64,000 nucleotides of DNA, from assembly GCA_963708185.1 (NCBI GenBank), contig OY970195.1, forward strand, positions 608,001-672,000, written 5' to 3'. This document shows, piece by piece, positions 1-14,890 of the stretch. The position numbers were made by a program, and so were the translations under genes. This DNA is from Candidatus Peregrinibacteria bacterium. Its GTDB lineage: Bacteria > Patescibacteriota > Gracilibacteria > UBA1369. The notes beneath the pieces are model-generated. The model was not told where the DNA came from. It saw only the letters and a list, made by a program, of their open reading frames with translations, and searched no databases. How positions within the stretch are numbered: position 1 is the first letter of the stretch; each line of letters opens with the position of its first letter.

Positions 1-519
1 CAAGTTACCGTTCAACCCTTGCTGAGTCCCCCACTTCCAGACGCTCTTTCTCGCGTTACCAAAAAGACGTTCGGCTTGTATGTATCGCCGGGAAACTCTC
101 CGGTGAGTCCGGAAAAATTCCAGGGCTATCATACCGGCGTGGATTTTGAAACTTTTCCCGACGAACAGGAGGTTGACGTTCCCGTGAGCGCGGTCTGCAG
201 CGGTCCGCTCGTGATGAAAAAGGTCGCGACCGGCTATGGCGGCGTCGCCGTCCAGCAATGTACGCTCGACGGCCAGGATGTCACCATCGTCTACGGTCAT
301 CTCCGTTTTACCAGCATCAAACCCGCGGTCCACGACCAGCTCCAGGCCGGTCAAACGTTCGCGGTTCTGGGGACGGGCTACAGCAGCGAAACCGACGGTG
401 AACGTAAACATCTTCACCTGGGAATTCACAAAGGCACGACCATCAATATTCTGGGGTACGTTCAAACCAAGGCAGCTTTAAGCCAATGGCTGGACGCGAC
501 GAAGTACCTTTCATTTTAG
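1..519 (+). CDS. M23 family metallopeptidase (5' end probably outside window)
   Basis: HTGVDF, YGHL and HLHLGIH zinc motifs of M23/LytM; frame is open toward the window edge. Confidence 0.85.
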   Translation, partial: QVTVQPLLSPPLPDALSRVTKKTFGLYVSPGNSPVSPEKFQGYHTGVDFETFPDEQEVDVPVSAVCSGPLVMKKVATGYGGVAVQQCTLDGQDVTIVYGHLRFTSIKPAVHDQLQAGQTFAVLGTGYSSETDGERKHLHLGIHKGTTINILGYVQTKAALSQWLDATKYLSF

Positions 520-549: not shown

Positions 550-2325
550 CTACGGAGTTAATGACTCGGGCGGGGGTGGAGTGCTCGATTGGTTCGAAGA
601 TGACTGAGGAGCTGTTTGATTCGACGGTGCGCTTGGAACAATTTCCGAAGGGGGTGGAGCAGACGTCGATGTGTTTGATGTTGATGTTGTCGATGACGTT
701 GGAGTTGTCGACGAAGGCTGTGACGGGATCACCGGATCCTGAGGGGATGATGTGTCAGTCGGGGCCGCCGGCTGAGGCTGCGGAGAAAACTGATCTTGAG
801 GTGCGTTTGGCGGCGGCTTAGAACTGTCCGAGGAAGGCGGCTGGGGAGCCGGAGCTATCGAGATTGTTTCCTGCGGTGTGCCGGAGGCATGAACTTTCAC
901 TTTCGGGTGTGTTTCCTGTGTCGGCGTCGACTGTTGAGAGAGGCCGTCAACGGGACAATGGAGCATGTAAAAATCACGGGTAAAGAGCTGGTCCAGGGTG
1001 ATCGATGAAAGATCCGGCTGGGTGCTTGCCTCCTGGGTCGAAGAGAGCGCGAGCTGCTCCTGGGTCGAAGCCTGGGTGTGCTGTTGGGAAGCTTGAGCAG
1101 TCGATGTGGACGAAGTTCCTAGCAGCGGCGCCGTGGATACCTGGCCGGGCTGTGAAAGGATTGCCACCGTATTGTCTCCGTAGATCGTCTTGAGATCCAT
1201 GCAAAGATTTTCAACGTTGTAGCATGCGGTGTTGTTACCGAGATCTTCCTCAAGGGAGGCCTGTTTATCCTTCAGAGTCTGAAGCATGTCCGGCGTTGTT
1301 CCGGGATCTTTTCCGGCTTTGTCGCGCAGGTCATTGAGGAAAAGAAGCTGCCATTTGAGCGAATCGCAGGTTGAGAGTGTACGTCCGCAGGTTTTGTCTT
1401 CGGATTTCTGGACGACGAGATTAAAATATTGGTCCCAGGTTTTGGTTTGCTGTGCCTGGGCTATGCGATCATCATAGACCGCGCAAGGTGAACAATTATT
1501 TTGTTCGGCAACTGCCTGGAGCTGTGTTTTCTTGCTAATATCAGCGGGGTCAATACTCTGACCGAGGGTGAGGATCTGATCGCTGAGCTGGGCACACGTC
1601 GTACACTGTACCGGTTGGATCCCTGCCGTCGGCTGAGTATATGCATCCGGCAGATTCAGGTCAAAGTAGTTGTTGTTGATGTCGCATGCGCAGCGGCTGC
1701 TGATCGGGTCCATTACCTGTCCGGTCGGGCAGGCGTTGAGGGTAATCTGGGTGATATTGGAAAGATCCGTGATTTGAGATGTCTGCTGGCTTTCGGCCCG
1801 GGTTTGTTCCTGCGTCGGAGTAACGGCAGGGGTTTCAAGGTTCGACGGTTGTTCAGCGGCACCCTTCAACTGTTCAGGATTCTGCGGCGGTGGATTGAAA
1901 ACCCCGCTGGAGTACAAACCGATGGCCGTCCCTGCAAGCATCAAGACCACGACGCCGGCCACGATCCATTTCATGGAACCAGAATGAGCCTTTTGGAGCG
2001 GTGCTTCAACGGATTGAGAAGCAACGGCTTCCACGGAAGCGGGTTCGCTTGCAGGAGCCGGCTGGGGAGGTTCCGGGTGAGCTTCAGATTCGGGCGGGGC
2101 CTGTGGTTCCAGTACTTTATCTGACTGTTGAGCCTCTTGTGGTTGGACAGGAGTCGGTTCACTGACCGGGGCTTGTTCCTGAGGCTGAAGGGTTGCCGGC
2201 TGGGATGTTGTCGCCGGCTGGCTGTCATCAAGTGAAAAGACCTTCACCTGCTGTTCTTGAGGTTGAGGAGCTGAAGGCTGGGACGGTTCCGTCTGCTGCA
2301 TTCCTGACTGTTCTTCGTTCTCCAT
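550..2325 (-). CDS. Single-pass membrane protein: P/Q/E-rich N-terminus, Cys-rich extracellular domain, S/T/P-rich tail
   Basis: 591-aa ORF; TM WIVAGVVVLMLAGTAIGLY; paired Cys (CAC, CTTC, CSPC); extended -10 upstream. Confidence 0.8.
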   Translation of the reverse strand: MENEEQSGMQQTEPSQPSAPQPQEQQVKVFSLDDSQPATTSQPATLQPQEQAPVSEPTPVQPQEAQQSDKVLEPQAPPESEAHPEPPQPAPASEPASVEAVASQSVEAPLQKAHSGSMKWIVAGVVVLMLAGTAIGLYSSGVFNPPPQNPEQLKGAAEQPSNLETPAVTPTQEQTRAESQQTSQITDLSNITQITLNACPTGQVMDPISSRCACDINNNYFDLNLPDAYTQPTAGIQPVQCTTCAQLSDQILTLGQSIDPADISKKTQLQAVAEQNNCSPCAVYDDRIAQAQQTKTWDQYFNLVVQKSEDKTCGRTLSTCDSLKWQLLFLNDLRDKAGKDPGTTPDMLQTLKDKQASLEEDLGNNTACYNVENLCMDLKTIYGDNTVAILSQPGQVSTAPLLGTSSTSTAQASQQHTQASTQEQLALSSTQEASTQPDLSSITLDQLFTRDFYMLHCPVDGLSQQSTPTQETHPKVKVHASGTPQETISIAPAPQPPSSDSSKPPPNAPQDQFSPQPQPAAPTDTSSPQDPVIPSQPSSTTPTSSTTSTSNTSTSAPPPSEIVPSAPSNQTAPQSSSNQSSTPPPPESLTP

Positions 2326-2350
2326 TATTTTTTATTTTAGGTATCGTTAA

Positions 2351-2359
2351 ATTATAACA
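2351..2359 (-). promoter_or_regulatory. Extended -10 promoter (TGTTATAAT) for the 591-aa gene
   Basis: Consensus TGnTATAAT about 25 nt upstream of the ATG at 2325. Confidence 0.6.
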
Positions 2360-2382
2360 TAAAATATGCTTTTAAACAATTT

Positions 2383-2409
2383 AAAAGGCCCTGATGTTCA
2401 GGGCCTTTC
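2383..2409 (-). terminator. Rho-independent terminator after the PKD genes and the small ORF
   Basis: AAAGGCCCTGA-TGT-TCAGGGCCTTT hairpin with T-run on the minus strand. Confidence 0.7.
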
Positions 2410-2431
2410 GTGTTGTATTGAAGCCATTTTT

Positions 2432-2548
2432 CTAAGCTTTCACTCCGAGGCTCAGATACGGGAGGATAGCTGCCAAAAGGATCATGAGAATCGTGGCGAT
2501 TCCCACGGCTTTAATGATCTTCTTTTGTCTCCTGGTGTGCGTGCTCAT
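2432..2548 (-). CDS. Small single-TM membrane protein, 38 aa (not in ORF track)
   Basis: Hand translation MSTHTRRQKKIIKAVGIATILMILLAAILPYLSLGVKA*; starts 11 nt after the upstream stop and ends before the terminator. Confidence 0.65.
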   Translation of the reverse strand: MSTHTRRQKKIIKAVGIATILMILLAAILPYLSLGVKA

Positions 2549-2559
2549 GCTTGTTGAGG

Positions 2560-4911
2560 TTACTGAACAGTACCGGTGACCAGAATGTCCATGGTGAAGC
2601 TATCAACGACGTTCTGGTTGTCGGCCACCTCCAATTTTACAGTATAACTTCCTGCGTTGGCAAAGGTATGGGTCGGCTTTCGGGTTCTGGAGGTCTGTCC
2701 ATCGCCGAAATCCCAATTGTAACTTGCAACAGTGCCGGTCGAACAGCGTGGATCAAAATCCACGGTCAACGGTGCTGCACCCTGTGTCGTGCTTGCTTCA
2801 AAACAGGATTTTAAAGGCACCGGGCGTACGTTGACCTGTGTTTGAGCGGTTGACTTGGACCCGTCGGATGCGATGGCTGTTACCTTCGCGGTAAATGTTC
2901 CGATCTGATTGTATTTGTAGGTAACCTTGGAAACGTCGATGCGTTTCGGTGTACCGTCGCCGAAGTCCCATTCATAACTGACGATCTGTCCAGTTGGATA
3001 GCTCGATCCCGAAGCGTCGAAGGTCACGGTCAATGGAACGACACCCTCAATCGGATCCGCGACCACGCGGGCCTGAATTCCCTGAGCAGCGACTTTCACA
3101 ACCATGACCGTACTTGCGGTTTTATTTTGAGCATCATAAACGGTGAGGGTCGCGTTGTAGGTTCCGGCCGTGTTATACACGTAGCTTACCTGTTTTCCTG
3201 AATCGTCGATCTTGCCGTCTCCGTCAAAATCCCATTTGTAATCGACGATGGACCCGTTGTCTTCCTTGCTCGGGGAGCCGTCGAAATTCACCTGGAACGG
3301 AACGGTGCCGCTGATATAGCCGTCTCCCTGTTTTGCTTCGGTTGGAACGGTCGTAAAAGACGCGATCGGTGCTCCGGTCGGTTTTTCAAGCGTAAGGGTT
3401 TGCGTCGTCTGGTTCTTGGTTCCTTTGGCGTCAGTAACGGTCAAACTTACGACGTAATCGCCCGGATCTTTATAAACGTGCGTTGCGGTACGGGTGGTGG
3501 CGTGAGGAGTCTGATCTCCGAAATCCCATTCGTAACTGTTAATCTGACCGTTCGGGCTGGAAGATTTTTCACCTGAAAAATTGTATTGGGTTCCGGTGTA
3601 GTAGTGCCCGTCCTGTGTGGGAACATCAATCACCGCTGTCGGAAGGTTCGGTCCCTGGACGGTGATGTCGTGGGAAATTACCGCGTACTGTCCGGTGTTA
3701 TCGGTTACGCGAAGGTTCACGGTGTAGGTTCCGACTTTGTCAAAAGTGTGCTGGATGGTCGCCCCGGAACCGCCGTTAAAAGTATTGGTATTGTCAAAAT
3801 CCCAATCGTAAGCCTGAATTTCACCGGCGGGAGCACTCGATGCGGAAGCGTCAAAACTGACGTTCAACGGTGCGGGACCGGTATCCGGTGTCGCCGTAAA
3901 GTCGGCGTTCAGTTTCACGTTGGAAATGGTGACGATGGTACTGAAAGTCTGGGTCGTCTCTTCTCCGGTAGCTGAGTTTTGAAGGTCGACGTTCACCTTA
4001 ACGTCAAAGCGTCCGTTGTTTTTTCCGCGGTCTTTATAGGTATGGGACGGAGACTGGACCGTGGAAGTTTCCCCATCGCCAAAATCCCACAAAAAAGCCA
4101 AAATCTGGTATGTCCTTGTATCGAGCGGAAGTTTGGTCCCGTCAAACTTGATGGTTACGGGAGCGGTGAGTCCGAGTGTTGTCGCGGGGTCGGTAACGAT
4201 TCCGACCTGTTGCGTCTGTTGAGGTATGATGACTTTTTTGGAACTCATGTAGAGATAAATTCCAACCCAGATGAAGACCATGAAAATAAGGAGCAAACCC
4301 GAAGCACCAGCCAGGGTCAAACCTCCTTTGCGGCCTTCCTTGTCTTCTTTTCTGGCCATTGCCGCGCGGAAAATACCCACGATGGCAATGATGAAAAGGA
4401 TGATCGAGAAGAATCCAAAAATAACATTCACCAGGGTGATGAGCGAGTTGATGAATGTTGCAGGGTCAAGGCCGAGTGATCTTGCCATGGCGTTATCCCC
4501 TGTCGGCGAAGTTTGGGCTACGAAAATAAGTACAAAAAGAACAAACAATAAAATCGAACATCCAAAACATCCAACAGTCCAATACAAAAGCCTTCTGGCG
4601 CTTGGCGGTTTCCGTACGCCGGGTTTTTGTGCGCCGGGCTGGCCGGGACGCATTCCCGGGCGCATTGGTTGGCCTGGGCGCTGCATCTGTGGCTGCATAG
4701 GGCGCTGTTGATATTGCGGCTGTTGCATGGCCGGCCTTTGCATTTGCTGTTGTGGCTGCTGCTGCATTGGTTGAGCAGGCCGCTGCATTTGCGGCTGCAT
4801 TGGTTGCTGCGGCTGCATCCCCGGCTGTTGGGGTTGTTGGGCACCGCCGCCTGTGGATGGCACTCCGCCTGAACTTTGATTGCCGGGATTATTTGGATTT
4901 GTTTCTGGCAT
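2560..4911 (-). CDS. PKD-repeat surface protein (Q/P/M-rich N-terminus, 3 TM, 6 PKD domains)
   Basis: Six WDFGDG/WDFD...HTF/Y...GxYxVxLxVxD PKD motifs; three hydrophobic helices; overlaps the upstream gene by 23 nt. Confidence 0.9.
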   Translation of the reverse strand: MPETNPNNPGNQSSGGVPSTGGGAQQPQQPGMQPQQPMQPQMQRPAQPMQQQPQQQMQRPAMQQPQYQQRPMQPQMQRPGQPMRPGMRPGQPGAQKPGVRKPPSARRLLYWTVGCFGCSILLFVLFVLIFVAQTSPTGDNAMARSLGLDPATFINSLITLVNVIFGFFSIILFIIAIVGIFRAAMARKEDKEGRKGGLTLAGASGLLLIFMVFIWVGIYLYMSSKKVIIPQQTQQVGIVTDPATTLGLTAPVTIKFDGTKLPLDTRTYQILAFLWDFGDGETSTVQSPSHTYKDRGKNNGRFDVKVNVDLQNSATGEETTQTFSTIVTISNVKLNADFTATPDTGPAPLNVSFDASASSAPAGEIQAYDWDFDNTNTFNGGSGATIQHTFDKVGTYTVNLRVTDNTGQYAVISHDITVQGPNLPTAVIDVPTQDGHYYTGTQYNFSGEKSSSPNGQINSYEWDFGDQTPHATTRTATHVYKDPGDYVVSLTVTDAKGTKNQTTQTLTLEKPTGAPIASFTTVPTEAKQGDGYISGTVPFQVNFDGSPSKEDNGSIVDYKWDFDGDGKIDDSGKQVSYVYNTAGTYNATLTVYDAQNKTASTVMVVKVAAQGIQARVVADPIEGVVPLTVTFDASGSSYPTGQIVSYEWDFGDGTPKRIDVSKVTYKYNQIGTFTAKVTAIASDGSKSTAQTQVNVRPVPLKSCFEASTTQGAAPLTVDFDPRCSTGTVASYNWDFGDGQTSRTRKPTHTFANAGSYTVKLEVADNQNVVDSFTMDILVTGTVQ

Positions 4912-7900
4912 GTTTCTTTTTGTTTAAGGTATTTATAATAAATATACCAAAACCGCCTACAGATACAAGCAGGAGCGGCCAATCGACCACTTCATACCCG
5001 GAAAGCACGAACGCCTGGAGTTGGTTCGCAGGTTGTCCTCCTCCGCCTGTTGGTGTTGGCGTTGTTCCGGCCGGTGCCGGCTGCGGATCAAAGACGATGC
5101 TTTTGTCCACGGTTTTTTTATTGCCGGCGGCATCAACGACAGTAAGCCTTACGCTGTCAACACCGTAGCTTCTAAAAAACGGCGTCGTCCAGCTTCCCGG
5201 CTTATCGGTCTTGTAATCTTCATCGTCGGCAGGATTTCCGTTGCCGTTGGAATCGTAAAAGATGTTTTTATCAATAATATAGGAGGTGATGTTTCCCTGT
5301 GATCCTGAAAAATCCAGGGTAACGTTCGCACTGTCCCCTTGCAGGTGGACCTTCCCGTCCGCCACACTCGTTGCCGGCGTGGTAATCAAACGGGCATCCA
5401 GAGGTGCGGCCTGTTGTGTTTGAACAGCAACCGGAGCTTTCACATTCACGAAGTTCGTGACGGAGTTGCTGCTGCCCTGATCGTCGGTGACGGTGAGTTT
5501 TACCCTGTAAATACCGTAATCGGGATATTCGAAGGTCGGTGCGGCGTCACTGGACTGGATATCGTTGTCCTTGATGCCGTCTCCGTTCGAATCAGTATTG
5601 ACGTCAAAATCCCAGGCGTACGTTTTCAACGTTGCGCCGTTTTCAGTATCAGCCTTCGAGTTGTTGGTGAACTGGATTTTCTTGCCGTCGAGCTGAGTAG
5701 AGGTGAAGGCGGCGACCGGCGGTCCTGATGCGGCATCAACGAAAATCGTTACCGGATCGGAAATCGATTCGGCACCATTGTTGTCGCGGACCTTCAAACG
5801 GACCTTAAATCCGTTTTTGTTCGGATTCTTGAAGGTATAGCTCACATTGGCCTTGTCGTAAGTCTGGTCTCCCGGATCGGTATATCCCTGACCTTCAAAA
5901 TTCCACATATAACTGACGATCTTGCCGCCTTTGTCCGGATCGGTTGAACTTGAACTGAAGTTCACGCTGTCTCCGACAAAAATGTTGGTATGATCCACGC
6001 TGAATTTGGAGATCGGAGCTTTGTTCGGACCATTGGTAACGTCGATACTCGGAATCAAAGCTTCATTGAAATCTTTGCTGGAATCAAATTTGTCGTTTTC
6101 GTTGTCGGTGGCGATCACCCCGAATTTATAGGTTTTTTTCTGACCTTCTTCACCGTTGGTTCCGATGGTCATGGTCACGCTCGGGTTCTGGTTGATCTGG
6201 ACACCAAGCTGGGTCCCGGGATCGTTCACGTCATAATACCACCACTTGTAACTGACGATTTTCCCGTCGGGATCTATCGCTCCCTGAGCTGACACATTGA
6301 CTTGTAGCGGAGTCACAAGGTTGGCACTTATCGGAATAGCACTTATGCCACTGATGACCGGAGGCAGTCGTTTGATGCTGATCGTCACGGTGTCTTCCGG
6401 TGAAGATTTTCCAGTATCGATATCTGAAACTTTCAATTTAACGGTAAAATTTTTGGATTTCTGGTCACCGATATCTTTAAAGGTATGTGTTACGGTTTTC
6501 TTGTCACTCTTCGGACTGCCGTCACCGAAATCCCAACTATAGTTGAGGTTGCGACCGGTACCATCGATATTCAAAGATTTACCGGCGTCAAAGGTAAAGA
6601 CCGAGGTACGATTTCCTTCGATTGTACTGCTGGTATCGCTGATATTCTGGCCATCCATATTGACGCTGATGGCGGCGATGGCACTGTCGGACGAACCTAT
6701 GAAGACTTTGCGATATGTTGCATTGCCATTATCCTGCGTATCGTAAACGGTGAGTTTCGCCTTGAATGCTCCGGCCTGGGTGTAGGTGTGCTTAACGACC
6801 GCGACGCCACCTGTGATATTCCCTTCTTCTTTGCCATTATCACCGGTATCGATTCTGTAAGCGACCCCATTGTCACTTTTTACGTTAAAAGTCACGTCAG
6901 CGCTGCCATCCACAAGCTGAGCTGTCAGCGGAGATCCATCATCGCTCCAACCGACATCGAGATCGTTGGTAACAGTTAGCTGCTGTTCCTGTGGAACGCT
7001 GTTGTTCGGATCCGCAGGATCCTGGACGTCGAGCGTTACGGTGTAGTTGCCTTTCTTGAGTTTGATTTGGATACGGCCGTCGGCATCATTGTAACCGTTT
7101 GTTCCTTCGTTGCCGAGCTGGATACAATCGCTTCCGGTGGTTTCGTAGCCTCCAGTGCCACCCGTATTTGCTTTATAATAGGTGCAGTCGCCGGGAGCGG
7201 CATTTACTTCCCATTTATACTGAAGTTTTTCATCAGGAGTTCCGTCAGGGTCGTAACTCCCCGTACCGTCGAGGCTGTAAAGGTTGGGATGGGTCGGATC
7301 CGTGTTCTTAGCAATGAACTGTGCGACCGGAGGTTTGGATTTCATTTTGAGCGGGATGTCGGTCGTGGCAGTAGTACTGCCGTTATCGACTGTAAGCCCC
7401 ACATCGTAGCTTCCCGGTGCGTTGAAGGTATAATTGAAAGCGTCGGCCGTTTGGACCGGAGGCGTGAAATCTGTCGGAATGGTTCCTTGGCTGTTTTTGA
7501 GCGTCCAGTCGTATTTCGTAATCGGGCCGCCGTCGCTGGCCGAGAGAGACTGGAACTGGTACTGGTCACCAAGTTGGCCGAACTGTCCCGGCGTGACCTG
7601 GATTCTGGATACGAGCGAACTGACGATGACATTAAAAATCTTACGGTCAACGATGCCGCGATCGTCGGTCACTTCCAAAGTGACGCGGTAGGTTCCTTCT
7701 TTATTATATTTAACGCCCTGGACGGTGGACTTGCTGTCGGGCGGACCTTCCTGAGTATTATCGGGGTTGGTTTTATCTCCGAAATCCCATTTTACTTTGG
7801 CCTGGCCTCCGGCATTTTTGAGAAGGATATCGCCTTTGGCGCCGACTTTCGTATTTGAAGCGTCAAACTTGATGCCCTGCTGTGCTTCGGTCAATGTGAT

Positions 7901-9613
7901 CGGAAGATTCTGCATGTTGGTTGTCTGTACTCCGTTGGTATATGCGGATAATATTAACGGTTCCTGGACGTCTGAAACATTTGCCGTCAATGCAATCTGT
8001 GCGACGGCCGGTTTCACAATGATGGTCTGATAGGCAATGCCGTCTGCCGGCTGCTGTTCTCCTTTGCCCTGATCTGCTTTCGGTGCTTTGATGCTGAGTT
8101 TAACAATGTAGGTGCCAGGGTTCTGGAAAACATGGGTCACTCCTGCACCGATTGCCGTGTTGTCGGCACTACCGATATCACCAAAATCCCACTGGTAACA
8201 TCCGTTCTGTGATCCGCTGTTACAGTTGGCGTTTGCCGCCGGATCGATGGTGTGGTTGTTGGGATCAAGTGACTTGAGACCGTCGAAGTTGACCGGCAAC
8301 GGGGCGTTGCCTTCGGTCTTGTCCGCGGTAATAACGGTATAAACGAACTGGAGATCTTTCACGAGGTCGTACAGTTTGCTGAGATCGTTCACGACCTGGA
8401 GAATTGCCGCATTGTTCGGTGTTCCTGCAATGGTATAGGCTGGCGTAGCCTGGGCAAATGCCTTATTCACAAAAAGTTGCATCCATCGAGAAGGATTCAC
8501 GAATGCAGTTGCCGGAAGATTCGGCACGAGCTGTTTGAGGTCTCCCAGGACGATCGTGAATTGATTGTCCACCGCCGGAAGAGCCGCCGCCTGTTTGATC
8601 TGGTTCTGTAATTTCAAGAGTGTATCGTTGGCTTTGACCACAGCCTGGGCGAAATCCTGTTTGTTGGCCTCAGTCATACCGGCAGTCCCGAATTGTGCAT
8701 CAAACTCGCTTTTAATATTGTCGTAGTTCACTCCCAGGTCTTTCCAAAAAGAAGACCAGTCTGTGGTTTGTTCTTTGCTGTTAGCGATCTGATCCAGTGC
8801 CGAGTTGGAGAGATTGATGTATTTATCGATCAAGACAAGTCCGGCCTGTCCCTTTTCCGCGATCTGGCTTAAGGCACCGGCTTTCGTGATGATATTAATC
8901 AGAATCTGGCGTTTTTGCTGGAGATTTGACTTAAAGGAATTCGCGTCACTGGTTCCGAGAATGCTCGAAAAAGCATCGACATTGGAAAGTGTCGCGAGAT
9001 CTGTATTGATTTCACTGTAGTTCTGGTACGCGGTGACGAAATCACGTGCGACCGTCTGGACCACGCTGCCGGCATACGCGAAGAGTGCCTGACGCTGTGC
9101 GTTCTGGTCTCCCGTTCCGCTCGGTGCTGAACCGTTATTTGCTCCCTGATCTGTTCCACCTCCTGCGAGAAGTACGGTGTTCACCAACGCAAACGATGAC
9201 AGGATGATCAAAATACCGATAATGGCATAGGTCAGAGCTTTTTTGCCTTTCCCTGCCTGTTCTTCCTTCCCGGCTGCGGTAACGTAGAGAAAACCTCCGT
9301 AAATCACCACCACCACAGCGATGATGCCGAGGAATCCGAGTCCGAAGTTCACGACGTTCTTGATGTACTGGCGCAGGTCTGTGTTCTGGGCCAGGCCCGG
9401 AGCGTACTGTGACGCTTCAGGAGCGGAAAGTGTTCCGCTGAATTCGGTAAAACTGGTGGTTTCGGTTCCGCAGGAGAAGAACCCTCCAGTACTTTGGGAG
9501 ATGTCGCCGCAAAGATCCGCGAAAGCGAAACTCGGCAGTGCGAGGGACAGGAATGCCGTCAACGACAGCAGAATTGCCAGTATTTTGTGTTTGTATGGTG
9601 TGGTGGTACCCAT
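4889..9613 (-). CDS. Giant surface protein: N-terminal TrbC/VirB2-like pilin domain, about 10 PKD/Ig-like domains, C-terminal TM
   Basis: Signal peptide; pilin hairpin IYGGFLYVTAAGKEEQAGKGKKALTYAIIG; repeated WDFGD motifs; DSNGDG/DSNGNG Ca-type loops; C-terminal hydrophobic stretch plus basic tail. Confidence 0.9.
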   Translation of the reverse strand: MGTTTPYKHKILAILLSLTAFLSLALPSFAFADLCGDISQSTGGFFSCGTETTSFTEFSGTLSAPEASQYAPGLAQNTDLRQYIKNVVNFGLGFLGIIAVVVVIYGGFLYVTAAGKEEQAGKGKKALTYAIIGILIILSSFALVNTVLLAGGGTDQGANNGSAPSGTGDQNAQRQALFAYAGSVVQTVARDFVTAYQNYSEINTDLATLSNVDAFSSILGTSDANSFKSNLQQKRQILINIITKAGALSQIAEKGQAGLVLIDKYINLSNSALDQIANSKEQTTDWSSFWKDLGVNYDNIKSEFDAQFGTAGMTEANKQDFAQAVVKANDTLLKLQNQIKQAAALPAVDNQFTIVLGDLKQLVPNLPATAFVNPSRWMQLFVNKAFAQATPAYTIAGTPNNAAILQVVNDLSKLYDLVKDLQFVYTVITADKTEGNAPLPVNFDGLKSLDPNNHTIDPAANANCNSGSQNGCYQWDFGDIGSADNTAIGAGVTHVFQNPGTYIVKLSIKAPKADQGKGEQQPADGIAYQTIIVKPAVAQIALTANVSDVQEPLILSAYTNGVQTTNMQNLPITLTEAQQGIKFDASNTKVGAKGDILLKNAGGQAKVKWDFGDKTNPDNTQEGPPDSKSTVQGVKYNKEGTYRVTLEVTDDRGIVDRKIFNVIVSSLVSRIQVTPGQFGQLGDQYQFQSLSASDGGPITKYDWTLKNSQGTIPTDFTPPVQTADAFNYTFNAPGSYDVGLTVDNGSTTATTDIPLKMKSKPPVAQFIAKNTDPTHPNLYSLDGTGSYDPDGTPDEKLQYKWEVNAAPGDCTYYKANTGGTGGYETTGSDCIQLGNEGTNGYNDADGRIQIKLKKGNYTVTLDVQDPADPNNSVPQEQQLTVTNDLDVGWSDDGSPLTAQLVDGSADVTFNVKSDNGVAYRIDTGDNGKEEGNITGGVAVVKHTYTQAGAFKAKLTVYDTQDNGNATYRKVFIGSSDSAIAAISVNMDGQNISDTSSTIEGNRTSVFTFDAGKSLNIDGTGRNLNYSWDFGDGSPKSDKKTVTHTFKDIGDQKSKNFTVKLKVSDIDTGKSSPEDTVTISIKRLPPVISGISAIPISANLVTPLQVNVSAQGAIDPDGKIVSYKWWYYDVNDPGTQLGVQINQNPSVTMTIGTNGEEGQKKTYKFGVIATDNENDKFDSSKDFNEALIPSIDVTNGPNKAPISKFSVDHTNIFVGDSVNFSSSSTDPDKGGKIVSYMWNFEGQGYTDPGDQTYDKANVSYTFKNPNKNGFKVRLKVRDNNGAESISDPVTIFVDAASGPPVAAFTSTQLDGKKIQFTNNSKADTENGATLKTYAWDFDVNTDSNGDGIKDNDIQSSDAAPTFEYPDYGIYRVKLTVTDDQGSSNSVTNFVNVKAPVAVQTQQAAPLDARLITTPATSVADGKVHLQGDSANVTLDFSGSQGNITSYIIDKNIFYDSNGNGNPADDEDYKTDKPGSWTTPFFRSYGVDSVRLTVVDAAGNKKTVDKSIVFDPQPAPAGTTPTPTGGGGQPANQLQAFVLSGYEVVDWPLLLVSVGGFGIFIINTLNKKKHARNKSK

Positions 9614-9644
9614 AGGTGAGTTTTAAATTTTTATTTATCTAAGT

Positions 9645-9653
9645 ATTTTAGCA
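9645..9653 (-). promoter_or_regulatory. Putative extended -10 (TGCTAAAAT) for the giant pilin-PKD gene
   Basis: Near-consensus TGnTAnAAT about 30 nt upstream of the ATG at 9613. Confidence 0.45.
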
Positions 9654-9674
9654 CACAAACGGCCTTTTGTTCAA

Positions 9675-10706
9675 TTACGGACCGACGGTGCCGCTTGTGG
9701 GAAGTCCGACCGGCGCGCCTGTTCCCGCCGGCGTTGCCCCTGTTGAAGGGCCGATCTGGTTTTCCAGCTTGACGGTCGTGTTGACGATGCCGAACGCGGC
9801 CATGGCCAATAGTAAACCGATCGTTGCTTCGATAATGACTTTTTTCGCTTTTCCCGTAGCTTCTTCGTTTCCGAAAGCCGTGACATAAATGTAACCGCCA
9901 TAGACATACATGACCGCGGCGATGGTCGTCAGGAATCCTGAAATGAAGTTGGTGATGTTGATAATGAGCATTTTGGTTTTTTCCACGTCCGGAAGCTGGC
10001 TTCCCTGTTGCGGGAAGAGCACGTCTTTGACGCCGAATTCGGCGACGCCGATAAGCATGAGGCCCAGGACGGCATAAATGATCTGACGTTTTGATTTCGC
10101 CATAACTTCTTCGTTTCCACCGCTGCTGAGGTAACGAAAACCTGCAATCACGATCATCAATACAGCAACGGCACCCGAGAAATAGGCCATGACTTCATAA
10201 ATACCCTTGATCTGTGCTGAACCGGCCTGAGCAGCCTGTTGCAGTGTCGACTGACTGCTGAAAATTTCGCCCTGCTGCCCGAAGAAAACCTGGGTCACAA
10301 ACTCATTGGCGACGATAATAACGATCAATCCGATAATAGCGAATTTGATGTGATTTTTCTGTTTTTGCGCTTCTTCTTCGGTTGCTTTTCCGCCTGAGGT
10401 CACCAAACGCACTCCGGATATGATAATGGTAACGACCGCCACCGTTCCCATGGCGTATTTCGCAAAGTCCACGGCGTAGTAGATGGCACTGGTGATTCCG
10501 CTCGCTCCCGCTTCAATCGATGCGTTGGCGTGACCGGATGTTTCATAGCCGGGCAGGCTGGTCTGGTTTCCGACGTTGCGGATAATATCCGAAGCCGTCT
10601 GCGCGTTGGCCGGCACCACCAGCGTCAGCGCAACGCTCGTGGTGACCACGAAGAGCAACAGCGGTGCAAAAACGTATTTCCAGATTGAGGTGAGTCGGTT
10701 TTTCAT
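9675..10706 (-). CDS. Triple tandem TrbC/VirB2-like (T4SS pilin) protein
   Basis: Signal peptide (ANAQ) then three helix-G(N/K)xEE..KxK-helix units: SGGKATEEEAQKQK, SGGNEEVMAKSK, AFGNEEATGKAKK. Confidence 0.85.
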   Translation of the reverse strand: MKNRLTSIWKYVFAPLLLFVVTTSVALTLVVPANAQTASDIIRNVGNQTSLPGYETSGHANASIEAGASGITSAIYYAVDFAKYAMGTVAVVTIIISGVRLVTSGGKATEEEAQKQKNHIKFAIIGLIVIIVANEFVTQVFFGQQGEIFSSQSTLQQAAQAGSAQIKGIYEVMAYFSGAVAVLMIVIAGFRYLSSGGNEEVMAKSKRQIIYAVLGLMLIGVAEFGVKDVLFPQQGSQLPDVEKTKMLIINITNFISGFLTTIAAVMYVYGGYIYVTAFGNEEATGKAKKVIIEATIGLLLAMAAFGIVNTTVKLENQIGPSTGATPAGTGAPVGLPTSGTVGP

Positions 10707-10732
10707 TTTCGTTTGTTGTTTGTTGAGTTTTT

Positions 10733-11755
10733 TTATTGACCGGTGGGCTGGGTGACGGTTCCCACTCCACCCTGGAAGCTTCCGGAAATGATGGTACTTA
10801 CGATGGCGAAGGCGGCGTACATGATCAAGATCCCGGCGATGACGGCGAAAATGAGGCGTTTGGCTTTCCCCTGGCGCTCTTCGTTGCCTGCTGCGGTAAT
10901 GTACATGAATGCGGCATAAAGAAGCATCAGAATCGCCACAGGAGTGGCAATGGTGACGACGAGATTGGTGAATCCCGTTATTTCACTTACGCCCTGTGCG
11001 GCGTCGAAGCCGGGGGCGGCGCCGCCGACGCTCGGATATTTACTGAGATCGATCTTGTAAAAGACGGTATTGATGGCGGAATCTGCCATGATGATGAAAA
11101 GCAACCCGAGAATTCCGTAAAAAAGCGACTTCTTGTCCTCGGCAAGTTTTTCCTCGTTTCCCGCGGATGTGATCAAACGAAGACCGCTTCGGATAACCGA
11201 AAACACGGCGACGCTTCCGATGAGATACTTGATGAAGGTGATGATGAACTGCGTGCGTTGGTTGAAGAGCGTCGCGGAACGGACGATGGCGTTCGGTCCG
11301 TTCAAAAATCCTCCCTGCGTACAGGGCTGCTGGGTAATAAAATCTTTTCCAGTGCTTGAGCATCCCACGTTGAAAATTCTGGCAAGGTCTCCCGCGAAAC
11401 CCACGACGGCAAGACCAATGATGGCGTACATGATGTTTCTTTTCTGGGTCGTATATTCTTCTTCGTTTCCCTGCGCGATGACCAGACGTATACCCGCGTA
11501 AACCAACAGTGCGACTGCCACGGCTCCGATGATGTAGCGAACGTTATTCACGACCGCCACCATGAGGTTGTCGAATTTTTCATCGGCGGTGCTCCCGGCG
11601 ACCTGGGGAAGATTCGCATAATTTGAAGCGTCGGGAATAGGAAGAAGCGACGTGCTGTCCTGCGCCTGAGCACTGACGAGTACCGGAGCCGACAAGCTTG
11701 TCAGCACGGCGGCCATCAGAGCGAGTGCGAGAAAAAATTGTTTCAACGTCTTCAT
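10733..11755 (-). CDS. Triple tandem TrbC/VirB2-like (T4SS pilin) protein
   Basis: Signal peptide (SAQA) then three units: AQGNEEEYTTQK, SAGNEEKLAEDKK, AAGNEERQGKAK. Confidence 0.85.
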   Translation of the reverse strand: MKTLKQFFLALALMAAVLTSLSAPVLVSAQAQDSTSLLPIPDASNYANLPQVAGSTADEKFDNLMVAVVNNVRYIIGAVAVALLVYAGIRLVIAQGNEEEYTTQKRNIMYAIIGLAVVGFAGDLARIFNVGCSSTGKDFITQQPCTQGGFLNGPNAIVRSATLFNQRTQFIITFIKYLIGSVAVFSVIRSGLRLITSAGNEEKLAEDKKSLFYGILGLLFIIMADSAINTVFYKIDLSKYPSVGGAAPGFDAAQGVSEITGFTNLVVTIATPVAILMLLYAAFMYITAAGNEERQGKAKRLIFAVIAGILIMYAAFAIVSTIISGSFQGGVGTVTQPTGQ

Positions 11756-11787
11756 ACGCGCTTACAAAAATACAAAAATATCTTTTA

Positions 11788-11796
11788 ATTATAGCA
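11788..11796 (-). promoter_or_regulatory. Extended -10 promoter (TGCTATAAT) of the pilin cluster
   Basis: Perfect TGnTATAAT about 32 nt upstream of the ATG at 11755. Confidence 0.65.
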
Positions 11797-11876
11797 GAAA
11801 AAGGTCATTTTTGCAAAGGTGGTTTGGCGGATGATGTATAATATTTTAGAAAGTTTCCTTCAGCTCATTTGAAGTT

Positions 11877-12137
11877 ATGTCTCCCATCAAAATTCTTGTT
11901 TTCATGCTCTTCGTCATCTTCGGACTGGCAATTTTCCCCATGATGATTTCTGTTTTCTTGTTCCTTGAAACCGCCATCGGCAATCAGGATCTGGGAATCG
12001 TCGCTTTCCTGAGGGAACAGTACTGGTACGTCGTCGCTGGCGTGTGGATATTCGCAGCTGCCGGAATAGCGTTCGCTTTGCCCGCGATGCTCAAGAGCGG
12101 TTTTTTTAACGACATCGACAGCGATGATAAAAAATAA
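11877..12137 (+). CDS. Small 2-TM hypothetical membrane protein
   Basis: 86-aa ORF with two hydrophobic helices; TGTATAAT upstream. Confidence 0.65.
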   Translation: MSPIKILVFMLFVIFGLAIFPMMISVFLFLETAIGNQDLGIVAFLREQYWYVVAGVWIFAAAGIAFALPAMLKSGFFNDIDSDDKK

Positions 12138-12238: not shown

Positions 12239-12619
12239 ATGTCAGAACCTAAGTCAGAATCCAAAAAATCCAAAAAAAATCCCATCGTCGCATACTTTCA
12301 GGACAGCTACGAAGAACTGAAAAAAGTGACTTGGCCTACAAGAAACCAGGCGATAAAGCTTACATTCATCGTTATCGGTTTTTGCGTGGTACTCGCATTT
12401 TTCCTTGGAGCTCTCGATTTCGCATTCAACTACGGCTATCGCGCGCTCGTGGATTATTCAACCAAGGTCGCTCCGCCGACAACCACCCAAACTCCCGTGA
12501 CGAACCAGGTTGCTACCGGCGAACCGACTTCGACCGTCGATCTTTCCAAGTTAAAGGTTGAACCGACTTCTGCTCCGGTCAGTGATGTCACCGTTACTCC
12601 GGGTTCGACTCAACAATAA
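12239..12619 (+). CDS. secE: Preprotein translocase SecE with T/P-rich C-terminal extension
   Basis: ELKKVTWPTR motif plus TM; directly upstream of nusG. Confidence 0.95.
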   Translation: MSEPKSESKKSKKNPIVAYFQDSYEELKKVTWPTRNQAIKLTFIVIGFCVVLAFFLGALDFAFNYGYRALVDYSTKVAPPTTTQTPVTNQVATGEPTSTVDLSKLKVEPTSAPVSDVTVTPGSTQQ

Positions 12620-12638
12620 TCTTAATTTCGTCCACACT

Positions 12639-13184
12639 ATGCCAAAACAAGCACCCGGTACAGGCCGCCATTGGTATGTTGTCCACACCTACTCTGGGTA
12701 TGAAGATGCGGTGAGGGAAGCACTTCTCCAGCGCGTTGAATCTTTGGGAATGCAGGATTTGATTTTCGATGTCGTCGTTCCGAAAGAGACTCAGATCGTC
12801 ATTAAAAAGGGAGAACCAAAGACTGAAAAGAAACGCATTTTTCCGGGTTACGTTCTTGTGGACATGATCGTGACCGATGATTCCTGGTATGTTGTCCGCA
12901 ATACTCCGAACGTCACAGGATTCGTCGGTGCTGGAACCACTCCGGTTCCGGTTTCTCCAGAAGAGTTCCAACTCGTAAAAAAACACATGGGTGAGGCCGA
13001 ACCCAAGTTCAAGATCGATTTTGCTGTCGGTGACCATGTGGTCATTCTTGACGGTCCTTTCGTCAACTACGACGGCGTCGTGAACAAAGTCGATGAGGAG
13101 AAAGGCAAAATCAAGGTACTCATTACGATTTTCGGTCGTGAAACGCCCGTGGAACTTGATTTTACCCAGGTCAAGAAAAAATAA
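12639..13184 (+). CDS. nusG: Transcription termination/antitermination factor NusG
   Basis: WYVVHTYSGYE, FPGYVLV, KOW motif, IFGRETPVEL; start trimmed to ATG 12639. Confidence 0.98.
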   Translation: MPKQAPGTGRHWYVVHTYSGYEDAVREALLQRVESLGMQDLIFDVVVPKETQIVIKKGEPKTEKKRIFPGYVLVDMIVTDDSWYVVRNTPNVTGFVGAGTTPVPVSPEEFQLVKKHMGEAEPKFKIDFAVGDHVVILDGPFVNYDGVVNKVDEEKGKIKVLITIFGRETPVELDFTQVKKK

Positions 13185-13243: not shown

Positions 13244-13867
13244 ATGAACAAATTTACTCTTTTCACACTTTTTCTTTCTTCGATCATCATCGTGATCGTC
13301 GCGGAAATTCTTGTGAACGAATATTTGCGAACTCCCTACAGTCTTGAAGGTGCCGCAAATATTTTTCAGGCCCAACAGGCGGATTCCCCTTCCCAACAAA
13401 CCGCCACGGCCGCCCAGGGTTCAAGCCAGGCTGTTGCAGCTTCTTCGGGCTCGTTAAGCATTGAACTCCTTCAAAAATCCGGTCTTCAGGACTATACCCT
13501 TCAATCCCAACCATACGGAGGCGAGCTACTGGACAAGATTCCTTTCACCGATTTGAACTTCATTCCAACCTTTGAATCCCACCTGATGAAAAACCAGGTG
13601 GCACGGGTGGCAAGTTTCTACGAGTTCCAGCCCGGTTCGATCCAATCGGCCCAGGAAGTTTACAACCTGCTGAAACAGAAAACTTCAAGCGAAGTCGGAG
13701 TCATTCTCAACGAGACGAACAGTTTCGAAGACCAGTCCTTTTACGTGAACTATTTCGAGTATCCAGACAAGGTGTTTTTGGTCTTCCGCAAAGGCACAAA
13801 TGTCTTCGCCTATACCTACAGCAAGGAACTGCACCCGCAGATCACGAAACTGATCGGACTTTTATAG
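13244..13867 (+). CDS. Hypothetical protein with N-terminal TM anchor
   Basis: 207-aa ORF filling the nusG-rplK gap; hydrophobic residues 4-24. Confidence 0.75.
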   Translation: MNKFTLFTLFLSSIIIVIVAEILVNEYLRTPYSLEGAANIFQAQQADSPSQQTATAAQGSSQAVAASSGSLSIELLQKSGLQDYTLQSQPYGGELLDKIPFTDLNFIPTFESHLMKNQVARVASFYEFQPGSIQSAQEVYNLLKQKTSSEVGVILNETNSFEDQSFYVNYFEYPDKVFLVFRKGTNVFAYTYSKELHPQITKLIGLL

Positions 13868-14437: not shown

Positions 14438-14890
14438 ATGCCAAACGTCAAAGCACAGCAAAAACCCAAAGGTGGCGCCATGCGGATCATCCGCAACGTC
14501 TATCTTTATCTCGTCACCCTTATCGGGCTGATCACTTTCATTTTCGGCTCGGTCGGGATCATCAATAATGTGCTGCAGCGCTACGTTTTCCAGGTTGATC
14601 AGGGCAGTATTTATACCGCTCCGGTCTATCCGGGATACCGGGACCAGTGTTCGTCCTCTTATCCGGACCCGAATGATCCACAGGGGAAAATGATGATCTC
14701 GCCAACCACTCAGGAGATTACTGACTGCAGAAAATCCCAAGACGAACAGAACAAGCGTATCAACGATTCAAATTTCGGACGTGACCTCTCGATTTCTCTG
14801 GCTCAAATTGTCATCGGTCTTCCCATCTGGCTCTTCCACTGGGGCATTATCCAGAAAGAGTACCGACGGAGGGAAGAACATGAAGTATAA
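14438..14890 (+). CDS. DUF5671-like 2-TM membrane protein
   Basis: IRNVYLYLVTLIGL...LAQIVIGLPIWLFHW pattern; Cys pair in the loop. Confidence 0.7.
   Translation: MPNVKAQQKPKGGAMRIIRNVYLYLVTLIGLITFIFGSVGIINNVLQRYVFQVDQGSIYTAPVYPGYRDQCSSSYPDPNDPQGKMMISPTTQEITDCRKSQDEQNKRINDSNFGRDLSISLAQIVIGLPIWLFHWGIIQKEYRRREEHEV

Follow-up and report, generated by a model that had tools for sequence, protein, structure and literature searches.

Chained VirB2-like pilins and pilin-PKD fusions in a conserved operon of Gracilibacteria/Peregrinibacteria: candidate subunits of a dispersed type IV secretion system

Introduction

Nearly all Patescibacteria have a type IV secretion system (T4SS), whose use on their hosts is an open question, and the T4SS of Gracilibacteria had looked incomplete, with unlinked genes and neither VirB6 nor VirB8. 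The T4SS genes of Gracilibacteria have been described as unlinked and VirB8 as nearly absent in the phylum, and relaxases were reported for only 103 of 3,035 Patescibacteria genomes (PMC12102498). In Southlakia, both the pilin arrays and the T4SS genes are essential (PMC10633639), and VirB6 has been proposed as the recruitment site of VirB2 and the base of the pilus (PMC9259494). The question is raised anew by a stretch of 64,000 nucleotides (nt) from the ultra-small, uncultured and host-dependent Candidatus Peregrinibacteria bacterium (C1:608001-672000 within the closed 1.44-Mb genome G000; "the window" in the following), which harbors six co-oriented genes, here named A to F, with VirB2-like pilin hairpins and PKD domains. 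A first-pass annotation made from the letters of this stretch had proposed a membrane base or filament that displays PKD arms for host attachment and is no conjugative pilus. Do these proteins act on their own, or do they belong to a secretion system encoded elsewhere? On balance, our analysis leans towards A to E encoding membrane-retained structural and adhesive subunits of a domesticated, chromosomally dispersed T4SS of Gracilibacteria/Peregrinibacteria, and not a stand-alone adhesin. Relatives were compared in 40 loci of the window's order, which were fetched by strong D hits and thus form a set biased towards D, and in samples of the class and the phylum.

VirB2-like hairpins in all four large proteins

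The six genes are minus-strand open reading frames (ORFs), just as annotated before (Table 1), and the seven VirB2-like hairpins recognized at first pass are recovered by the Pfam family PF18895 (T4SS_pilin) with 3+3+1 stretches in A, B and C (E-values of 5e-23, 5e-26 and 1e-8; 81.4, 91.0 and 35.6 bits versus a cut-off of 26.6). Scored singly, six of the seven hairpins exceed this cut-off, and the middle hairpin of A reaches 24 bits versus 26.6. A also surpasses the cut-off of the TrbC/VirB2 family PF04956 (36.9 vs 27.9 bits), and with three repeats summed A and B exceed the cut-off of 40 for the NCBIfam pilin-like family NF045849 (44.5 and 56.2 bits). B is an ancient paralog of A, and the hairpin of C is of the free-pilin type. 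A scan of named genomes with B retrieved one unrelated single-pilin locus only.

The AlphaFold2 (AF2) model of mature A consists of three long helical hairpins with folded linkers (predicted local distance difference test [pLDDT] 88, predicted template modeling score 0.68), and the AF2 models comprise helix-loop-helix units (pLDDT 88 and 91) whose cytoplasmic loop is charged. The typical layout of a leader peptide followed by a helical hairpin of two transmembrane (TM) segments with a charged cytoplasmic loop is present, and the leader is probably cleaved. A fold search with the A model and the C hairpin returned generic helical hairpins as top rows (best rows: Z 9.7, root-mean-square deviation 2.8, 75 aligned; Z 10.1, root-mean-square deviation 1.8, 75 aligned), a range that the tool calls unspecific for helical bundles. 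No solved pilin is among the rows shown for these two queries, and a profile search of PDB sequences yielded nothing relevant. A complex prediction for mature A plus mature B, both with alignments, scored 0.00 with an uncertain fold of the partner, which is no evidence either way.

An eighth, divergent hairpin was found in D, thereby extending the earlier count. D lacks a Pfam pilin match, and its link to the pilins was drawn by profile-profile comparison and a rank test. TM segments 2 and 3 of D are in register with the C hairpin (hhalign 92.7-95.7%, E 4e-7, 57 columns), whereas the SecE control reached about 1% or less against the seven pilin hairpins. A profile built from 60 D orthologs only places the 11 pilin ORFs of the genome at ranks 2-9, 11, 15 and 21 of 262 multi-TM ORFs. 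Run in the other direction, the comparison is weak, with D ranking 12th by the C hairpin profile, directly after the 11 pilins, and 20th to 25th by the other profiles. The ESM Atlas provided no usable match for the membrane region of D. All four large proteins A to D carry the same VirB2-like membrane module, with predicted outside termini and a short cytoplasmic loop.

The hairpins fall into two classes. The inner hairpins A1, A2 and B1 cluster apart from the terminal A3, B3 and C1, with B2 in an intermediate position. In the inner TM2 segments, the apolar run is short (13-16 vs 20-25 residues) and ends in an acid. Lysine or arginine is present at position 5 of TM1 in nearly all alignment rows (A1 142/143, A2 141/142, B1 112/117), and TM2 contains aspartate or glutamate in 132, 108 and 112 rows, respectively. 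Terminal or single hairpins contain neither the base nor the acid (0/143, 0/127, 0/101); B2 has the acid in 124 of 127 rows and the base in only 11. Judged from their register, K/R and D/E would form a buried ion pair in A1, A2 and B1.

The same inner TM2 segments resemble signal peptides, with a basic start, a short apolar run, a small residue and then an acid, and the -1/-3 rule holds for 136/143, 128/142, 65/117 and 126/127 inner-hairpin rows. A and B might accordingly be polyproteins from which signal peptidase frees single pilins by cutting after inner TM2. We regard such processing as distinctly improbable. The -1/-3 rule does not discriminate, as 62 of 101 terminal or single hairpins and 60 of 127 B3 rows also comply; three of the four inner hairpins match the acid with a K/R in register; the linkers contain near-invariant residues and are confidently folded into the next helix by AF2; and the products of cutting would be truncated pilins. 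An ion pair would account for the signal-peptide look of inner TM2 better than cleavage, because the rule is likewise satisfied by those 62 of 101 free-type hairpins. By homology and topology, A and B are stable covalent trimers with a specialized class of inner hairpins.

PKD arms and membrane tethering of C and D

The former estimate of about 16 PKD/Ig domains was a fair one: Pfam PKD_4 recognizes 13 stretches (six in D, seven in C) and a custom PKD profile 15 (6+9), and one further Ig-like stretch near residue 800 of C is unscored. C and D look membrane-tethered, because C has a second, C-terminal TM segment and D a cytoplasmic N-terminus with a signal-anchor TM segment; they would fit a base or collar better than the shaft of a pilus. 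The C-terminal TM segment with its basic tail is present in 31 of 37 order orthologs of C. This tail was considered as a shared sorting signal of the sortase or exosortase type and rejected, since the profile of the 31 ortholog tails finds only C in G000 (next E 0.16); an A/G/T/S-N-aliphatic motif occurs in 22 of the 31.

Six PKD domains are found in 58 of 60 D orthologs, and the two distal ones represent the best conserved part of D (52% and 48% mean identity among 22 orthologs; for comparison, SecE 42% and NusG 77%). Since the distal end is the most conserved and lies above SecE, a conserved structural partner fits D better than a variable host receptor. D would accordingly be less of a variable receptor-binding tip than a ruler or brace. 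Among the complete giants listed, C has a length of 1333 to 2666 amino acids (aa) and 5 to 17 PKD domains. No other segment of the operon is as well conserved as the C hairpin (60% mean identity), and none as poorly as the C spacer (15%). One relative encodes, in C's place upstream of D, a 2865-aa protein with an N-terminal pilin hairpin and no PKD domain (L046:7424-16021). The pilin hairpin may hence carry unrelated cargo.

Conservation and distribution of the operon

Most homologues of A and B with a name bear the label Ca. Gracilibacteria, Peregrinibacteria or Altimarinota, so that the genome would belong to a Peregrinibacteria-type member of the class Gracilibacteria. D matches are present in 60 of 61 relatives of the order, a few of these rows being PKD-only. 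The order A-B-C-D, whose conservation had been named as a check at first pass, is retained in 32 of the 40 order loci; six are cut by contig ends and two (L007, L012) lack A and B upstream. A and B carry three hairpins in all 32 complete loci and C and D are fusions of 780-2900 aa, which is at odds with the single small subunit of a classical pilin. The operon stands head-to-head with secE-nusG in 31 of the 32.

In the class sample, D was detected in 161 of 201 genomes (E 1e-20) and the B profile in 168 of 201 (E 1e-22), where the weakest rows may be PKD-only or single-hairpin matches. The phylum sample contains D in 17 of 301 genomes, all within the Gracilibacteria/Peregrinibacteria class. 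Three-hairpin spans outside the class are rare among the rows listed (G317 and G223, both four-hairpin proteins), with a query that favors the class. Two genomes of family f30, outside the class, encode four-hairpin pilin chains (L108:7759-9246, L109:8565-9959). The genes beside them are presumably gatB-like, judged by the N-terminal sequence. The apparent lack of B in family f149 (0/22) turned out to be an artefact of divergence and code 25: PF18895 matches are present in five of five genomes, and the triple in both loci fetched.

The set is reshuffled in other orders, where 11 of 19 loci have pilin genes close to D within the stretch fetched. In L047 and L060, two separate genes take the place of C, one for a single pilin and one for a PKD giant that has no hairpin. 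A and B form an adjacent pair of triples in all 11 code-11 loci fetched at B hits, eight of which have neither C nor D in the window fetched.

Chains of two, three or four hairpins also occur among the other-order relatives, a variability that a polymer could tolerate. It would agree with a VirB2-type pilus whose shaft incorporates the trimers A and B, be it as major or as patterned subunits, and whose base retains C and D. Their signal peptides look cleavable, they have no other anchor, and the linkers are long (medians of 29-49 residues). We nevertheless hold extrusion to be unlikely. The apolar runs of inner TM2 are short (13-16 vs 20-25 residues) and the inner class differs from free pilins, the conjugative pili known so far are composed of single pilins in a five-start arrangement (PMC9259494, PMC9905601), and no precedent was found for the extraction of six TM helices at once.

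A dispersed type IV secretion core

No VirB4-like match is located in the 64-kb window, in agreement with the initial observation that VirB4 and VirD4 are missing nearby. Parts of a monoderm-type, MPF-FATA-related T4SS are nevertheless present elsewhere in the genome, namely VirB4, PrgI/VirB3, a TrsD-like and a VirD4-like gene, VirB6 and eight single-hairpin pilin genes. A lone VirB4 lies at C1:344.5-346.5 kb (NF045971, 352 vs 325 bits), about 265 kb from the operon; PrgI is found at C1:385 kb (53.8 vs 27 bits) together with the TrsD-like gene, whose label is based on position and on its resemblance to the gene that PrgI and VirB4 flank in G401, and not on a TrsD profile; and the VirD4-like gene is at C1:510 kb. 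Genome-wide, PF18895 has 15 matches: seven in the operon, a five-gene array beside pilT and three singles. The array comprises five single VirB2-like pilin genes directly downstream of pilT on the same strand (C1:201580-204015; L063:5581-8016).

VirB6 has been reported as absent from Gracilibacteria, with extreme divergence as a suggested cause (PMC12102498). Its Pfam family PF04610 is indeed missing from all 17 class genomes, compared with 80 matches among 284 others (the 80 include the unpublished G211, on which nothing rests). PF19590 found no match anywhere, controls included, and is uninformative. Immediately after the atp genes, where TrbL had scored below threshold, G000 encodes an 887-aa protein with eight predicted TM segments (C1:879672-882335; L110), which was retrieved by a profile of 24 patescibacterial VirB6 cores (E 2.6e-32, next E 0.79; hhalign 99.8%). 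Corresponding matches are present in 93 of 101 class genomes. Judged by these profile matches, the genome and its class at large do possess a VirB6, a divergent but true one, and the genome contains VirB4, PrgI/VirB3, a TrsD-like gene and VirB6. This largely refutes the idea that the six-TM proteins A and B stand in for a missing VirB6, which drew on the PF04610 distribution, on the published absence and on the shared ancestry of pilin and VirB6/CedA (PMC9905601); the hhalign probability of A and B against the 24 VirB6 cores amounts to 0.4% and 4%, respectively, and we consider such a replacement very improbable.

Of 201 class genomes, 194 have a VirB4 match, and all except two of these have just one. 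Pilin genes are not clustered with virB4 in our genome, and such a cluster including a D ortholog was found in G372 only. There, the C-terminal half of D, four pilin-bearing genes, VirB6, PrgI, a TrsD-like gene and VirB4 are co-oriented on one 25-kb contig, and a second contig contains the end of B, C and the N-terminal half of D, with the break inside the same PKD domain and without sequence overlap. G372 is one metagenome-assembled genome (MAG), the only genome of its family, and the contigs are presumably contiguous. The f155 locus in G401 was rejected as a further case of linkage, because VirB6-PrgI-TrsD-VirB4 lie about 40 kb from D with unrelated genes between them. In another Patescibacteria class, a 454-aa frame on the minus strand of L092 (G121) fuses a PF18895-type hairpin to the N-terminus of a VirB6/TrbL protein; it adjoins a single pilin, a PrgI-like and a TrsD-like gene.

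The missing ATPase had been read as independence from a T4SS, and this reading is not supported: our genome, like the class as a whole, has the core in trans, and it is linked to D in G372. The co-occurrence check suggested at that time gave VirB4 in 194/201 and VirB6 in 93/101 class genomes; co-occurrence with the near-universal VirB4 cannot discriminate. The closest relative of the earlier proposal is a self-contained membrane raft, in which hairpins exapted as self-oligomerizing anchors would cluster the PKD arms, without any ATPase, into an adhesion patch or wall scaffold. The operon has its own promoter-like and terminator-like sites, no complete order locus contains a T4SS core gene, C and D are probably membrane-tethered, and large PKD-bearing membrane proteins have been proposed for host attachment in Vampirococcus (PMC8080830). 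The isolation of the operon is uninformative, however, since all T4SS core genes of the class are dispersed too (PMC12102498); the linkage of D to the core in G372 and the free-pilin type of the C hairpin, the most conserved operon segment (60%), also argue against a raft, which we rate as possible but doubtful.

Operon limits, small genes and neighboring genes

A to E are probably one transcription unit. The operon promoter-like site and the terminator-like hairpin between E and F are the top-ranked sites of the scans and lie at the operon ends, and none of 200 shuffles gave an E/F hairpin as good; the scan totals are modestly above those of shuffles (15 vs 8.5 promoters, 25 vs 15.9 terminators). 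No RNA holder is listed for the operon region. F is probably a separate unit, because the 12-bp terminator-like hairpin precedes it and it has its own extended -10 box (Table 1).

Table 1. Positions of the operon genes and accompanying features within the window
Feature	Position	Strand	Description
Promoter-like site	11788..11816	-	sigma-70-type, TTGCAA-17-TATAAT, extended TG; 10/12 matches, consensus match only
Gene A	10733..11755	-	340 aa; signal peptide and three tandem VirB2-like hairpins (~11393-11581, 11081-11245, 10790-10981)
Gene B	9675..10706	-	343 aa; signal peptide and three hairpins (~10293-10502, 10038-10211, 9780-9968)
Gene C	4889..9613	-	1574 aa; signal peptide, hairpin 9176-9370, spacer, at least nine PKD/Ig domains, C-terminal TM with basic tail (~4931-4990)
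Gene D	2560..4911	-	783 aa; Q/P-rich cytoplasmic N-terminus, signal-anchor TM, cryptic hairpin, six PKD domains
Eighth, divergent VirB2-like hairpin	4231..4464	-	D residues 150-227; missed by Pfam
Gene E	2432..2548	-	single-TM peptide of 38 aa with basic N-terminus and invariant Pro; closes the probable operon
Terminator-like hairpin between E and F	2383..2409	-	12 pairs, -21 kcal/mol, z -5.5
Extended -10 box upstream of F	2351..2359	-	TG-n-TATAAT; read from sequence, absent from promoter-scan list
Gene F	550..2325	-	591 aa, 12 Cys, one TM, low-complexity surface protein
secE-nusG	12239..13184	+	head-to-head neighbor; context, outside the system

The 23-nt overlap of the PKD genes C and D, noted at first pass, is exact in this genome. 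It is no conserved feature, as the gap between the ORF calls is negative in only 12 of the 40 loci holding both genes. The short TM peptide of the first-pass annotation corresponds to E. Of 60 loci, 36 have an E-like ORF immediately after D (31 by a start and hydropathy filter, five more by profile), which contradicts the impression from BLAST that E is limited to the genus. E has no family match, and a possible relation to DUF4044/Prli42 was dropped, with no such match in 14 homologues. The Cys-rich membrane protein counted into the cluster is present as F, which probably lies outside the operon. TM proteins with at least eight Cys follow D or E in 14 of the 40 order loci, long-range similarity being confined to the genus, and F has neither a Pfam or NCBIfam match nor a usable hit in the ESM Atlas. 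F seems to occupy a fast-evolving, variable slot.

Between the operon promoter and secE lies an 86-aa two-TM ORF (11877-12137, plus strand) without a homologue in the 40 order loci. Downstream of nusG, a 207-aa single-TM protein without family match (13244-13867, plus strand) precedes rplK in nearly all complete order loci (about 30% identity), and a DUF5671 protein (14438-14890, plus strand) is inserted between rplK and rplA. A Peptidase M23 gene (1-519, plus strand) converges on F and has no homologue in the 40 order loci; M23 domains have been noted among VirB1-like wall hydrolases of Patescibacteria (PMC12102498).

Comparison with known systems

The closest counterparts are the VirB2-like pilin arrays of Patescibacteria (PMC12102498), including Ca. 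Southlakia epibionticum (PMC10633639), which share the PF18895/PF04956 family, the chromosomal location, divergent copies in a row and the same VirB4/PrgI/TrsD/VirB6 core in the genome. The published arrays consist of separate single-pilin genes, whereas here the pilins are fused three per chain or to PKD arms, and the operon differs by its fixed order and number and by the specialized inner-hairpin class. PKD domains are not mentioned in the main text of PMC12102498. With VirB2/TrbC/TraA pilins and the archaeal CedA1/TedC the proteins share the signal peptide and the two-TM hairpin, A exceeding the TrbC/VirB2 cut-off, and Ced/Ted are likewise domesticated chromosomal T4SS derivatives (PMC9905601, PMC9259494). 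Those pilins are single small subunits that polymerize with lipid, C and D add membrane anchors, and the available text of both papers describes no tandem or PKD-fused forms.

A and B also surpass the cut-off of the Mbov_0395 family (NF045849) of the Mycoplasma integrative and conjugative element, which likewise has a monoderm host; its model spans 80 positions (one hairpin) and belongs to mobile elements, whereas A and B are core chromosomal. The giant PKD membrane proteins of Vampirococcus lugosii stem from a related lineage and were proposed for host recognition, but the available portion of that paper describes neither a pilin hairpin nor an operon or a link to a T4SS (PMC8080830). Pam pili of Saccharimonadia/Microgenomatia resemble our system as surface appendages specific to the candidate phyla radiation with Ig-like folds (PMC13278184). 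They are built from donor-strand-exchange pilins with chaperones, and the accessible text mentions neither VirB, PKD nor Gracilibacteria; against PamR, D reaches no more than 41 bits (cut-off 300).

Both the hairpin family and arrays of pilin genes have been described before. Chained pilins, pilin-PKD fusions and the A-E operon are undescribed in the literature searched, which included the available portions of PMC8080830, PMC11452946, PMC6744442, PMC9905601, PMC7427843, 10.1101/2025.04.23.650224 and PMC13278184; Table S3 and Figs S5 and S9 of PMC12102498 may list A-E genes as VirB2 hits.

Proposed role of the operon

The idea of a membrane base with PKD arms instead of a conjugative pilus survives in part: C and D appear tethered and suit a base or collar, while independence from a secretion system is not supported. 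In the mechanism that we propose, the eight hairpins and the free VirB2-like pilins would pack against each other in the membrane at the VirB6/VirB4 assembly site, by analogy with the suggested function of VirB6 in pilin recruitment and as pilus base (PMC9259494). A and B would provide a pre-arranged nucleus or base segment, and D, with its fixed six domains, and C, anchored at both ends, would brace the machine as a wall-spanning collar or arch. The arm of D would measure roughly 25 nm, a value based on the domain size. The collar would take the place of VirB8, which is nearly absent in the phylum (PMC12102498). This collar may help to hold the machine on the host, where other systems have VirB8 and surface adhesins, in analogy to the essential T4SS and pilin array of Southlakia (PMC10633639, PMC12857230).

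Several observations weigh against assigning A to E to the T4SS. Linkage to its core comes from the single MAG G372 with a presumed contig join, and in the window's order the operon is never located beside VirB4 where both positions are comparable (about 265 kb apart here). Co-occurrence cannot discriminate, because VirB4 is near-universal in the class, and the eight other pilin genes of the genome could serve the T4SS alone. Moreover, D is without a pilin neighbor in eight of the 19 other-order loci, and A and B are missing upstream in two of the 40 order loci (L007, L012).

A more far-reaching version of the T4SS assignment can be offered only tentatively. The operon might represent a new appendage architecture with a genetically programmed order of subunits, in which ion-pair-locked trimers template the first turns of a pilus assembled by VirB4/VirB6, and pilin-PKD fusions dock into the same lattice as a rigid wall-spanning collar that replaces VirB8 and the adhesins of Gram-positives and fixes the cell to its host. 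The T4SS of the class would then be complete and merely scattered.

For one class of Patescibacteria, these results provide a parts list of the T4SS, composed of a hidden VirB6, dispersed PrgI, TrsD and VirB4, and a conserved operon for chained pilins as well as pilin-PKD fusions. With VirB2-type pilins linked covalently into chains, nature would itself have set up an experiment on the packing and nucleation of pilus subunits.

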